NCBI GenBank assembly: GCA_014381465.1
Contig: JACNLP010000042.1
Coordinates: 40 to 64,039, forward strand
Origin: Flavobacteriales bacterium
Lineage (GTDB): Bacteria; Bacteroidota; Bacteroidia; Flavobacteriales; BACL11
Reading direction: 5' to 3'
DNA length: 64,000 nt
Below the pieces are notes generated by a model. That model saw nothing but the letters and a program-made list of their open reading frames with translations, had not been told where the DNA came from and did no database searches. Within the stretch, counting starts at the first letter, position 1, and the number at the start of each line of letters is the position of its first letter. Of the stretch, positions 28,231-31,162 are shown piece by piece. The translations under genes and the position numbers were made by a program.

Positions 28231-29478
28231 CTAATTTTTTATTTTTCCGTTTATCATTACTTTTTTAATCACATTATGTCCAAAGCTATAAGGTAAATAT
28301 GCATAACTTGGAATCGGTTTTGTGATAAAAAGGTTGGCTTTTTTACCTATACAAATACTTCCTAATTCTTTCTCAATCCCCATAGCATAAGCGGTATTTA
28401 TTGTTGTTGCATTAATCACCTCTTCAGGAGTCATTTTCATCTGAATACAACCCAAAGATGCTACAAAATTCATGTTACCACTTGGGGTAGAGCCAGGGTT
28501 ATAATCGGTTGCTAAGGCAACTGGAAGTCCTCTTTTAATCATTTGTCTTGCAGGTCCATAAGGGATACCTAAAAAGAATGAACATGATGGTAAAATAGTT
28601 GGCATACAATTACTTCCTTTCAATGCTTCATAATCTTCTTCTGCCATTTCTTCTAAGTGGTCCACTGATAAAGCCCCTAAATCCACTGATGCTTTTACGC
28701 CACCAATTGCATTAAACTGATTTACATGTGTTTTTGCTTGCATTCCAAATTTATTGGCTGCTTTTAATAATCGAGTAGTGTCAGCAACAGTAAAATACCC
28801 TTCTTCACAAAAGATATCTACATAATCAGCTAATTTTTCTGCTGCAACTTTGGGTAACATTTTATTGATAACCAAATCCATATAGCCTTCTTTATTGTCT
28901 TTGTATTCTTTGGGTAGAGCATGAGTGCCTAGAAAAGTTGCTTTTATGGTTACATCTGTATTTTCTTTAATCCTTTTAATGACTCTTAGCATTTTTAGTT
29001 CGGATTCCAAAGTTAAACCATAACCACTTTTTATTTCAATGGCTCCCGTTCCCATTTTTACTAATTCATTTAAGCGAATTAGTGCATCTTCAAATAATTC
29101 ATCTTCACTAGCATTTTGTAGTTTTTCTGCTGAGTTAAGTATTCCTCCTCCTCTTTGAGCAATTTCTGCATAGCTTAATCCATTTATTCTGTCTACAAAT
29201 TCTCCCTCACGACTTGCTGCAAATACTAGGTGTGTATGGCTATCGCAAAAGGTAGGGAAAACCATTCCCCCTTCAGCATCAATTATTTCAGTATTATTCC
29301 AATCTTCAATGCCATTCCACTCATCCATACTTCCAAAAGAGGTAATGATTCCATTTTCAACTTCTACAAATGCATCTTTAATTGTAGATATGTTTGACAT
29401 GTCTTTTCCTGCTACCCATTTTCTAGGAGTTTTTTCTGTTTGTATAAGTTCTGCAATATTTTTGATTACTGTTTTCAT
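28231..29478 (-). CDS. hutI: imidazolonepropionase (start placed at [11 protein letters not shown])
   Basis: Metal ligands [25 protein letters not shown]. Confidence 0.9.
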
Positions 29479-29516
29479 ATTTGGCGAAAATACAAAATTC
29501 ACTTCAATCATTATTG

Positions 29517-29530: not shown

Positions 29531-31162
29531 ATGGGAAATACTATAGGTAAAATATTTAAGCTGACTACTTTTGGGGAGTCTCATGGTGATGCTATTGGTG
29601 GTATTATTGATGGATGTCCTGCAGGATTAATAATTGATTTAGATTTCATTCAGCAGCAGTTAGATAGAAGAAAACCAGGGCAAAGCAAACTTACTACTCA
29701 AAGAAAAGAAAGTGATACTGTTCAGTTTTTATCTGGAATATTTGAAGGAGTAACTACTGGAACTCCTATTGGATTTATCATTAAAAATAAAGATGCTAAA
29801 AGCAAGGATTATTCTCATTTAAAAGATATTTATCGCCCTTCTCATGCTGATTTTACTTATGATAAAAAATATGGAATTCGAGATTATAGGGGAGGAGGAA
29901 GATCCTCAGCAAGAGAAACGGCTAATTGGGTTGTTGCTGGGGCTATCGCTCAACAAATACTTGCAACAGCTGGGGTGGAAGTGCGGGCTTATGTTTCTGC
30001 TGTTGGGAATGTTAAACTAAATAAGTGTCATAAGGATTTGGATTTAAGTTTAACGGATACTAATTTGGTTAGATGTCCTGATGTTGTAATTGCTCAGCAG
30101 ATGATTTTAGAAATTGAAAAAACAAAAAAAGAGGGTGATACTATTGGAGGAGAAATTACGGCTATTGCTTTTGGCGTTCCTGTAGGTTGGGGAGAACCCG
30201 TTTTTGATAAGCTCCATGCTGATATAGGAAAAGGAATGTTAAGTATTAATGCTGTGCACGGATTTAAATATGGCTTTGGAGGTGTGGATATATCCTCTAG
30301 TAAAGGAAGTGTAGTAAATGACGAGTTTTTACCCACCCCTAACCCCTCCATGGAGGGGAATGTTGGAGGTTCCCTCCAATATGAAGATAGTATTAGAAGA
30401 AAAATTATACCTTACAACCCAAAATTGAAAGAGTTTGCAAGTCAATTAAGAAAAAACATGACTTTTAGTGAAGTGTTACTTTGGGATGAAATTAAGCAAA
30501 ATAAATTAGGAGTAGATTTTGATAGGCAAAGACCAATGGATGAGTTTATAGTTGATTTTTATTGTAAAGATTTAATGTTGGCAATTGAAATTGATGGAAG
30601 TAGTCATGATTATAAATATTTGGAGGATTTAGACAGGCAAGATACTTTAGAAAAAATAGGCGTTACTTTTATTCGTTTTGATGATAAAGATGTAAAGCAA
30701 GATATGAATAATGTTTTAAATGCTTTAATTCAGAAAATAGAAGAGTTAAAGCAAAAGGGGCTAGTAGGTAGAGAACAGATTTCCGATAGTCCCCTCCTTG
30801 GAGGGGAGAAAGGGGTGGGTTCTGACAATTCCCCTCTAGGGATGGGAGTAAAGAGTGTTGAGGAATTCCCCTCCCAAGAGGAGAGTAAGAGGTGGGTTCC
30901 TACCAAAACCAACTTTTCTGGAGGAATACAAGGAGGAATAAGCAATGGAAATGATATATATTGTGAGGTAGCTTTTAAGCCAGTGGCAACTATTATGCAA
31001 AAGCAAAATACGATTGATGCAGCAGGAAAGAAAGTAGAAATTAAAGGAAAGGGCAGACATGATGCTTGTGTGGTGCCAAGGGCAGTTCCTATTGTTGAAA
31101 GTATGATGGCGCTTACTTTGGTAGATGCTTATTTGAGAAGTAGGACTGATAGGTTAATTTGA
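29531..31162 (+). CDS. aroC: chorismate synthase carrying a 189-codon in-frame insertion
   Basis: [42 protein letters not shown] before the insert; [31 protein letters not shown] after it. One continuous 543-aa ORF. The 29309 ORF-track start is an upstream extension. Confidence 0.9.
30331..30897 (+). mobile_element. inverted-repeat-bounded G+C-rich cassette encoding a DUF559 (Vsr-like endonuclease) domain, inserted in frame in aroC
   Basis: DUF559 motifs [53 protein letters not shown]. The left end ACCCACCCCTAACCCCTCCATGGAGGGG is the reverse complement of the right-end unit. Length 567 bp = 3n. No transposase. Confidence 0.7.
30790..30900. repeat. three tandem ~35-40-bp palindrome-containing units forming the right end of the cassette
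   Basis: TCCCCTCCTTGGAGGGGAGAAAGGGGTGGGTTCT / ..TTCCCCTCTAGGGATGGGAGTAAAGAGTGTTGAGG / AATTCCCCTCCCAAGAGGAGAGTAAGAGGTGGGTTCC. Confidence 0.8.

Follow-up and report, generated by a model that had tools for sequence, protein, structure and literature searches.

An in-frame nuclease domain in chorismate synthase

The DNA analyzed here is a 64,000-nucleotide (nt) stretch of a metagenome-assembled genome (MAG) of a Flavobacteriales bacterium (assembly GCA_014381465.1, contig JACNLP010000042.1), hereafter the window. Its chorismate synthase gene, aroC, carries in frame a cassette that encodes a DUF559 nuclease domain between inverted, G+C-rich repeats. The open reading frame (ORF) at 29531..31162, on the plus strand like all cassette features below, encodes a chorismate synthase of 543 amino acids (aa) with this extra domain. 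Based on Pfam, PF01264 (Chorismate_synt) covers the protein in two stretches (E=3.5e-132), confirming a preliminary description that had placed chorismate synthase on both sides of an insert, and the NCBIfam aroC equivalog scores 417 bits against a cutoff of 212. The AroC signature motifs, FGESHG included, are unbroken, and the insert occupies a loop directly before a conserved 11-residue motif. Relative to orthologues that lack it (empty alleles, as opposed to filled ones), about 194 aa (EFL...RWVP) stand in place of an 8-aa loop, a net difference of +186 aa; a loop of only a few residues had been expected there.

The 5' part of aroC (29531..30322; aa 1-264, ending ...GSVVND; PF01264 stretch at aa 9-280) is 84-85% identical in amino acids to empty orthologues, with a ratio of nonsynonymous to synonymous divergence (dN/dS) of 0.11-0.15. 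Three junction codons follow, E-F-L (30323..30331), a host-like flank unlike the loop of empty alleles in the window's lineage (ND-I/V-I/L-ID...). The left terminal unit, U, is ACCCACCCCTAA-CCCCTCC-AT-GGAGGGG-AAT (30331..30361) and is translated as 10 residues. It leads into a left linker (30360..30394) with a small secondary palindrome (ATGTTGGAGG/CCTCCAATAT), where the predicted local distance difference test score (pLDDT) is <50. The nuclease core, a DUF559 or Vsr-like PD-(D/E)XK domain (30395..30772; aa 289-414), has no start codon of its own. To its right lies the first copy of U', the inverted partner of the left unit (TCCCCTCC-TT-GGAGGGG-AGAAA-GGGGTGGGT; 30790..30820), and then two more U' copies (30830-30857 and 30867-30897). 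Three tandem right-end units are thus present as first described, the second and third (from 30830 and 30867) being degenerate, with 75% and 79% identity to copy 1. The right junction (30898..30901) consists of the last base of the V456 codon and the P457 codon, after which the host sequence resumes with T-K-T-N; the 3' part of aroC including the stop (30902..31162) holds the second PF01264 stretch (dN/dS 0.08-0.13). The insert had been placed at 30331-30897. Its 189 extra in-frame codons stand, shifted by one base: they occupy 30332..30898, and the frame starting at 30331 gives 28 stops.

The left end, ACCCACCCCTAACCCCTCCATGGAGGGGAAT (30331-30361), and the first right-hand unit, TCCCCTCCTTGGAGGGGAGAAAGGGGTGGGT (30790-30820), are inverted repeats with 84% complementarity over 25 nt and 100% over the outer 10 nt. 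The outermost U' copy (to 30897) ends GGTGGGT, pairing with ACCCACC at 30331. Both ends of the insert are local peaks of G+C (0.52-0.55) in a window of 31.8% G+C, in agreement with the inverted G+C-rich ends reported at the outset. The palindromic core CCCCTCCWWGGAGGGG occurs twice in the window, against 0.02 occurrences expected by chance, and no further copy of the terminal unit or of DUF559 was found in the 64 kb beyond the insert. Across the aroC cassettes the terminal inverted repeats measure 25-33 nt and are near perfect in allele L002; the extra degenerate U' copies are missing from the minimal alleles L002 and L003.

A mechanical ORF call reaches an upstream ATG at 29309 (617 aa), overlapping the end of a divergent amidohydrolase gene (28231..29511, minus strand). 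The start at 29531 (MGNTIGK) is favoured over this ATG by the orthologue alignment.

Identity and predicted structure of the insert

The insert has a full-length match to PF04480 (DUF559; aa 298-403, 30422..30739; E=3.3e-26, 91.7-94.4 bits against a cutoff of 20.6), which bears out the complete domain recognized from the sequence. In Pfam a related family, REase_MTES_1575, matches below threshold, and these two are the only domains in the insert. The sequence of the nuclease core also matches PDB entry 3hrl (E=3e-13). All 35 invariant columns of a 28-sequence alignment of the DUF559 subfamily, including E-x-D-G..H, are kept in the window sequence, and the catalytic-type core residues E-x-D-G..H, R-Q, E and R-F are retained.

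An AlphaFold model of the 543-aa product, built on an 86-row alignment, has a mean pLDDT of 69.8. In this model the DUF559 domain (aa 289-412) is an independently folded unit with pLDDT of 81-96, beside a recognizable AroC core that is mostly confident. Segments 251-288 and 413-473 fall below 50 and are probably disordered linkers. Based on Foldseek, the AroC core matches the solved chorismate synthases 7rca and 1um0 (E ~1e-22). The insert matches the DUF559 structure 3hrl (template-modelling (TM) score 0.88, root-mean-square deviation 2.0), consistent with the Vsr/PD-(D/E)XK fold assigned to it earlier, and then the catalytic domain of the homing endonuclease I-Bth0305I (3r3p_B, TM 0.71, E=0.026).

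An in-frame insertion of this kind could be a spliced element (an intein, an intron or a site of translational bypass), in which case mature AroC would lack the insert. The reading frame is kept as an intein would keep it, and the terminal repeats can pair both ends in RNA (predicted minimum free energy z-score -8.1, for L002). However, no Hint or intein family matches in Pfam at E <=0.1, and the junctions read L|P ... S/V|I/P rather than Cys/Ser ... His-Asn|Cys/Ser/Thr. No Rfam intron or other RNA family matches positions 30250-30950 at E <=1, and the linker insertions and deletions (indels) described below preserve the frame, which argues for translation. We consider splicing very improbable. 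Pfam likewise detects no recognized transposase (DDE, HUH, serine or tyrosine) in the insert, and the earlier statement that the architecture is not that of an intein, a group I or II intron or an insertion sequence with its transposase agrees with the lack of any such signature in Pfam and Rfam. Two further candidate contexts were rejected: for a plasmid or phage vehicle we obtained only matches of <40% identity, and for membership of a defence system only weak PADLOC matches to generic restriction-endonuclease folds.

Filled and empty alleles of aroC

The identical protein, annotated 'MAG: chorismate synthase [Flavobacteriales bacterium]', is present on 4 contigs (NCBI, ENA and Logan). A whole-protein search retrieved three other clusters that combine AroC with DUF559, namely P0122 (83% identical) and P0123 and P0124 (~60% identical), and one of these filled clusters unites 7 members drawn from several assemblies. 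The insert is missing from more than 100 orthologues (357 aa, 75-85% identical). Of 224 AroC proteins collected, 10 (in 4 clusters) are filled; in the 214 empty ones the loop has a fixed length of 12 or 13 residues. None of the 214 empty proteins carries an insertion footprint. Longer AroC matches, considered as candidates for alleles with a footprint or with the small palindromic element alone, proved to be artefacts of start or end calling. At the level of clusters there are 4 filled against more than 200 empty (~230 in all), and the filled ones are scattered in the host tree. They fall in two AroC lineages with a protein identity of only ~60-68%, at the same insertion codon position, and all four filled alleles read ND-x-FL|PTPNPS...GVGS|x-T-K/Q-T-N. 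Filled and empty loci have the same gene order around aroC.

The window comes from a MAG, which raises the question of an assembly chimera or a pseudogene. The presence of the identical protein on four contigs from three sources, together with the multi-assembly filled cluster, excludes an assembly artefact. The three further filled clusters come from independent assemblies with the same gene order throughout; the reading frame of the ORF is unbroken, and purifying selection acts on its AroC parts. The probability that we assign to a chimera or pseudogene is negligible.

Both filled and empty sites exist among relatives, as anticipated in the preliminary description, and include a closely related pair. 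P0241 is an empty allele 98% identical to the filled P0124, and at the DNA level the loci of this pair (filled L003, empty L222/L223) are 98.4% identical over 7 kb (3.8 kb and 3.2 kb on either side). In this comparison 462 nt in the filled allele stand where the empty allele has 24 nt. The empty allele reads ...ACTTTT|CTCGAAGGAGGAAAAACAAGCTCT|AACCTATCT... and the filled allele ...ACTTTT|TTA-CCCACCCC...GGGGTGGGT-TCTATTACTAAAACA|AACCTATCT...; there is no target-site duplication, and 24 nt of the loop are replaced. The junction codons of the same pair differ (L-EGGKTSS in the empty allele, L-[cassette]-ITKT in the filled one). The density of single-nucleotide polymorphisms equals the background right up to both junctions, and no raised divergence that would mark a recombination tract was seen around them.

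The flanking codons are informative as to how the cassette may travel. The left F-L is native to lineage-2 AroC (x-F-L-E-G-G-K-T-S-S-N) and foreign in lineage 1, whose empty alleles read ND-I-I-I-D-E-S-G-K-T-K-T-N. For the right T-K-T-N the reverse holds: lineage 1 has it natively, and in lineage 2 it is foreign. The junction codons therefore resemble those of the other AroC lineage, over a differing tract of <~30 nt for which no donor allele was identified. AroC lineages with an overall identity of ~65% agree at ~85% in the DNA directly 3' of the insert. The foreign junction codons, on the left in lineage 1 and on the right in lineage 2, suggest that the cassette may travel with a few host-like codons. 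The E-F-L flank in the window was probably co-converted with the cassette, and the flank pattern fits gene conversion from a donor aroC allele. As the codons differ between alleles, the uniform empty loops cannot derive from a filled allele by deletion.

Selection on the insert and its history

We compared the window with allele L001 using Nei-Gojobori counts, the insert core comprising 126 codons. The dN/dS is 0.10 in the nuclease core and 0.08-0.12 in the AroC parts, and the nuclease core is under purifying selection. Synonymous divergence (dS) is 0.46 in the core and about 0.9 in the AroC parts. As proportions of synonymous differences (pS), the values are 0.34 for the core, 0.52 for the AroC parts and 0.30 for the linkers, and the corresponding ratios of nonsynonymous to synonymous proportions (pN/pS) are 0.13, 0.17 and 0.72. 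The difference in pS between host and core is 0.18 (95% interval 0.03-0.32; codon bootstrap, P=0.012), and the G+C content of third codon positions (GC3) is 0.21 in core and host alike. Judged at synonymous sites, the insert is younger than its host gene in this one informative pair. The linkers differ between the two alleles by three indels of 15, 3 and 3 nt, all multiples of 3, the 15-nt indel lying in the left linker (30360..30394). By these measures the repeat-encoded linkers evolve near-neutrally yet keep the frame; persistence by frame preservation had been proposed in the preliminary description.

Trees were built by neighbour joining, a distance method, with 100 bootstraps; the insert tree included 36 free-standing relatives. 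P0121 and P0122 are sisters by their inserts in 100/100 bootstraps and by their AroC parts in only 1/100; the AroC part of P0122 instead pairs with that of the empty P0227 in 83/100. Among the 36 free-standing relatives the four aroC inserts form one clade in 63/100 bootstraps. Between the two AroC lineages, insert and host show similar divergence. Taken together, the dN/dS values, the gap in pS and the tree discordance indicate that the nuclease is functional as a protein in an AroC that is still functional, and that the insert moved between aroC lineages after those lineages split.

These data also bear on whether the insert is an old, vertically inherited fusion that most lineages lost, repeatedly, and that was kept elsewhere because a nuclease tethered to AroC might serve the host in repair or defence. 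The nuclease core is under strong purifying selection, GC3 is fully matched to the host, and insert and host diverge similarly between lineages, all as such a fusion would have it; free-standing DUF559 genes are also very common (17,346 clusters in an exhaustive profile search at E <=0.001). It is contradicted by the rarity and scatter of filled clusters in the host tree (4 of ~230), by uniform empty loops that are not derivable by deletion, by the occurrence of filled and empty alleles within one species, by the younger age of the insert in the informative pair, and by the finding of the same cassette type in unrelated proteins (see below). We therefore regard an old fusion as improbable.

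A dispersed repeat unit accompanies free-standing DUF559 genes

The unit was searched for with the pattern CCCACCCCTNNCCCCTCNNNNGAGGGG, which has 21 fixed bases and an estimated ~0.3 chance matches in 596 Gb. It was found at at least 120 loci in species-representative genomes and on 15 viral contigs. Hosts among the matches listed are Okeania, Moorena, Trichodesmium, Nostoc, Pontibacter, Bacteroidales, Verrucomicrobiota, Planctomycetota and Calditrichales; the terminal unit family spans Cyanobacteria, Bacteroidota, Planctomycetota and Verrucomicrobiota. At 81 of 135 loci the units are singles. The remainder are tandem copies, alternating arrays, and pairs of up to 120 nt in the order U-spacer-U' or U'-spacer-U. 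One Verrucomicrobia genome has two near-identical 86-nt U-spacer-U' copies (L097 and L101). The short unit-spacer-unit pairs look like miniature inverted-repeat transposable elements (MITEs), and the overall organization resembles that of repetitive extragenic palindromic sequences (REPs) and bacterial interspersed mosaic elements (BIMEs). A DUF559 gene is present at 6 of the 120 unit loci listed, always adjoining the unit there. The prediction that the terminal unit would recur elsewhere thus holds for MITE-like pairs and for the surroundings of free-standing DUF559 genes. Rfam has no family for the unit on seven unit-rich loci, where the sole match is an unrelated SAM riboswitch.

Viewed from the nuclease genes, about 36 of 80 metagenomic loci of the DUF559 subfamily carry the unit in a fixed geometry, [palindrome]-TTA-GGGGTGGGTT, ~25 nt, ATG...gene, AACCCACCCC-TAA-[palindrome]. 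Relative to the DUF559 match, U' lies ~54 nt upstream and U lies ~25 nt downstream. Flanking inverted repeats of at least 16 nt are found at 49 of the 71 DUF559 loci with enough flank. At least five unit types (A-E) can be distinguished at L142-L221, all built from a hairpin and a third arm, the latter a repeat of the G-rich half (for example TTCCCCCTTTGAAGGGGG-TTA-GGGGGATG and GATTCCCTCCCTCGGGAGGG-GCA-GGGAGGGG). Unit type and DUF559 clade go together: the type is shared by 47 of 54 nearest neighbours, against ~23.5 expected, a match that may partly reflect host phylogeny. From these sequence patterns, the terminal units are probably the DNA recognized by this nuclease family. The order in the aroC cassette (outer arm, palindrome, gene, palindrome, outer arm, with no start codon) is the inverse of that in the free-standing module.

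Several unit loci have further features of their own. At cyanobacterial loci L030, L031, L038, L049, L055, L098, L106, L116, L124 and others, the unit lies within long heptamer tandem repeats; the heptamers in Okeania, Moorena, Trichodesmium and Anabaena are GGGAATC, GGAGACA, GGGAGTA and GAGGGAGAT, and the heptamer family varies by locus. In a Bacteroidia MAG (JBGSKC010000028.1; L054:110-368) units alternate in a BIME-like array (U'-U-U'-U-U', spaced by 51 and 78 nt). This array lies at the 5' end of a long ORF that by sequence is like a restriction-modification (N6-adenine) methylase. The SAM riboswitch (RF00162, 74.8 bits; L145:792-904) lies ~2 kb upstream of a free-standing DUF559 module and is probably unrelated to it.

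The dispersal of the units suggests a second way to read the insert, in which DUF559 mobilizes the ~31-nt units by repeat-dependent transposition, comparable to that of REPs by REP-associated tyrosine transposases (RAYTs), which serve REPs and REPINs, or to that of MITEs by a transposase; the aroC copy would be a single event, in frame by luck in a tolerant loop. The family-level data are well explained in this way: the spread of units over many genomes and phyla as singles, tandems and pairs in either orientation, the two 86-nt copies in one Verrucomicrobia genome, inverted units around free-standing DUF559 genes as REPs stand around RAYT genes, the co-variation of unit type with DUF559 clade, and an in-frame unit pair inside UvrA (described below). 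The aroC alleles themselves do not fit. A target-site duplication is absent and 24 nt of host loop are replaced, not interrupted; four alleles have in common a site, a frame and foreign flank codons, which independent events would not give; the U-gene-U' arrangement without a start codon inverts the free-standing module; and the window has no other unit. We also know of no stand-alone Vsr-fold transposase. As the explanation of the aroC insert, repeat-dependent transposition seems to us unlikely, though it is the main alternative to homing.

Other host proteins

Cassettes of this type are not confined to aroC. At four loci (L149:61-2130, L159:1917-2708, L175:2980-5160 and L085:1088-4291) a DUF559 frame runs into the N-terminus of IspG (GcpE), with tandem units; in L085, from a Bacteroidales genome, 19 tandem 63-nt repeats lie between DUF559 and IspG. 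No in-frame ATG, GTG or TTG was found between the nuclease and the conserved IspG N-terminus in L149 and L159. The IspG codons for GGTHP, ~70 nt downstream, natively read ACCCACCCC and are like the outer arm of the unit.

Based on Pfam, DUF559 is also internal to a Mur ligase (P0423), a cofactor-independent phosphoglycerate mutase (iPGM; P0469), a type ISP enzyme, Eco57I-like methylases and HsdS subunits, and it is attached terminally to ThiE and to a class II aldolase. Of the best 150 DUF559 clusters, about 20 are longer than 250 aa. In P0423, P0447 and others the downstream peptide is of the type ...TPPxEGN, similar to the unit-encoded PSxEGN peptide, and from the protein sequences the DNA behind the TPPxEGN peptides would hold the same palindromic core. 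In-frame DUF559 hosts of this related subfamily are P0423, P0469, P0466, P0483, P0399, P0447, P0477, P0359 and P0381, where DUF559 is flanked by the peptides KGWQ..DGVV upstream and TPP.EGN downstream.

A UvrA-like ORF, so identified by its motifs, on the Bacterium UASB14 scaffold DF820456.1 (L076:3441-6479) contains an in-frame U'-spacer-U pair (...ELPSWEGLGVGSEERRFLNAQPTPSPSQEGNVRD...) and no nuclease gene. Repeat units alone can thus sit translated inside an essential protein. HsdR with DUF559 (P0077, locus L006) was considered as a second tolerated host and rejected: on its 1-kb contig the frame ends directly past the right-hand unit, which looks like a disruption. Downstream of that ORF (L006:940-1079) lies a different inverted repeat (GTCATTCTGAACGGAGCGCAGCGAAGTGAAGAA ... 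TTCTTCGCTGCGCTCAGAATGAC), which suggests a nested repeat-element hotspot.

A proposed homing-type cassette that would stay in the protein

The anatomy of the insert, its preserved frame, selection on the nuclease, the presence/absence polymorphism, the tree discordance and the family context are, with moderate confidence, best read together as those of a non-splicing, homing-type selfish cassette with a DUF559 nuclease. The cassette would consist of a DUF559 reading frame between inverted ~31-nt G+C-rich units, set in frame in a variable surface loop of AroC. As suggested by frame conservation, it would stay in RNA and protein, the ribosome reading through it; the peptides encoded by the units would serve as floppy linkers, and the nuclease would fold as a separate domain hanging off an intact and functional chorismate synthase. 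Gene conversion would carry the cassette horizontally from one aroC allele to another, most likely set off when the cassette's own nuclease cuts the uninterrupted loop region (homing), and a few flanking codons would move along with it. Homing endonucleases typically target conserved sites, such as the ~85%-identical stretch adjoining the insert. We infer the activity of the nuclease, its target and homing as the transfer route from sequence comparisons. The selfish, nuclease-carrying cassette bounded by terminal inverted repeats that the preliminary description had proposed is supported, and the choice that it offered, between homing and a repeat-dependent transposition, is one that we also make by inference.

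Several points weigh against homing. The clade of four aroC inserts has a bootstrap support of only 63%. The gap in dS comes from a single allele pair and 126 codons, synonymous sites in lineage 2 being saturated. Homogenized flanks hide the direction, gain or loss, of the L003/L222 polymorphism. The likeness to I-Bth0305I is at the level of fold only (E=0.026). To our knowledge, homing activity has never been demonstrated for DUF559 itself, and the classical homing elements that we know of are without terminal inverted repeats. Translation without splicing is deduced from frame conservation. Finally, the dispersed units and short unit pairs point to a repeat-dependent mechanism as well or instead. 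The two mechanisms are compatible; the nuclease could recognize the core of the unit and act on both.

A broader proposal, which we put forward tentatively but with a substantial chance of holding, is that DUF559 proteins together with the ~31-nt units of hairpin and third arm (types A-E) are an unrecognized class of mobile elements in several phyla. A Vsr-fold nuclease with its own REP/BIME-like sites would spread between genes and into loops and termini of essential proteins (AroC, IspG, Mur ligase, iPGM, ThiE, UvrA and restriction-modification subunits) as a translated, non-splicing, protein-embedded selfish domain. If true, the class would have an intein-like lifestyle without splicing, and more than 17,000 DUF559 clusters would receive a first functional hypothesis. 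This very large family of unknown function would gain a testable role, with the conserved ~31-nt unit as the likely substrate. There are consequences for annotation, given that NCBI calls the 543-aa protein plain 'chorismate synthase' and that similar hidden inserts occur in IspG, Mur ligase and iPGM. For protein engineering, the insertion sites mark loops that apparently tolerate a domain of 150-190 aa.

Comparison with known systems

In the literature searched we found neither the unit sequence nor its translated peptides, the cyanobacterial small dispersed repeats of Elhai et al. 2008 lying outside that search; according to a paper that cites them, those repeats are confined to Nostocaceae. 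No link of DUF559 to mobility was found in the same literature. A repeat-bounded nuclease cassette family is thus seemingly both widespread and undescribed.

Vsr, DUF559 and DUF2726 have been grouped in one fold superfamily (PMC3424549), and the Vsr/DUF559 clade holds proven and predicted homing endonucleases located in introns, in the 'fractured genes' of split inteins or in separate ORFs (PMC2677866, PMC3239194, PMC3424549). The Vsr-like ('EDxHD') homing endonucleases such as I-Bth0305I (Dassa et al. 2009, PMC2677866; Taylor et al. 2011, PMC3239194) have the fold superfamily in common with the aroC insert. They likewise invade conserved genes at conserved sites, also as stand-alone inserts that break genes. 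They reside in group I introns, between split-intein halves or in gene-fracturing ORFs, have extra DNA-binding domains and lack terminal inverted repeats, whereas the aroC insert is a bare DUF559 domain of ~125 aa, with no start codon, in the host frame and bounded by repeats.

The ShiLan insertion in actinophage DNA methylases (Arsenault, Gosselin & Gogarten 2025, PMC11855218) is homing-like, shows none of the features of an intein or intron, keeps the host frame open and presumably forms a translated loop, all of which would apply here as well. Its HNH nuclease is out of frame, in an alternative frame, and its host is a phage (PMC11855218). The aroC cassette, in contrast, has a different nuclease fold, a nuclease in the host frame, terminal inverted repeats and a bacterial housekeeping enzyme as its host. 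By analogy, ShiLan is the nearest match in lifestyle, and this odd phage case is the only earlier pointer to such a lifestyle.

With regard to the repeats, REP/BIME sequences and their RAYTs (REPINs; Bertels & Rainey 2011, PMC3116915) offer two likenesses: short dispersed palindromic units that occur as singles, inverted pairs and alternating arrays, and a gene for a single-domain nuclease that stands between inverted copies of the repeat that goes with it. The enzymes differ: RAYTs are single-strand transposases of the HUH/Y1 type, and DUF559 has the Vsr/PD-(D/E)XK fold. REPs are extragenic, whereas units and cassettes here also lie inside coding sequence, and in this respect the unit pair embedded in UvrA behaves like the palindromic elements of Rickettsia (RPEs). 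RPEs are palindromes translated in frame that are not known to carry an enzyme or to occur outside a single genus. The unit described here is G+C-rich, occurs in several phyla and is tied to a nuclease gene.

Inteins resemble the aroC insert as in-frame selfish insertions by a conserved active-site motif of an essential enzyme, often with a homing endonuclease and with filled and empty alleles. They differ in that the aroC insert has no Hint domain or splice-junction residues and presumably stays in the mature protein. On the homing reading, the insert belongs with the selfish nuclease elements of homing type, but its architecture and its relationship to the host are new. It would represent a third way for a selfish nuclease gene to persist in an essential gene, neither as an intron nor as an intein, but as an extra domain on repeat-encoded linkers.

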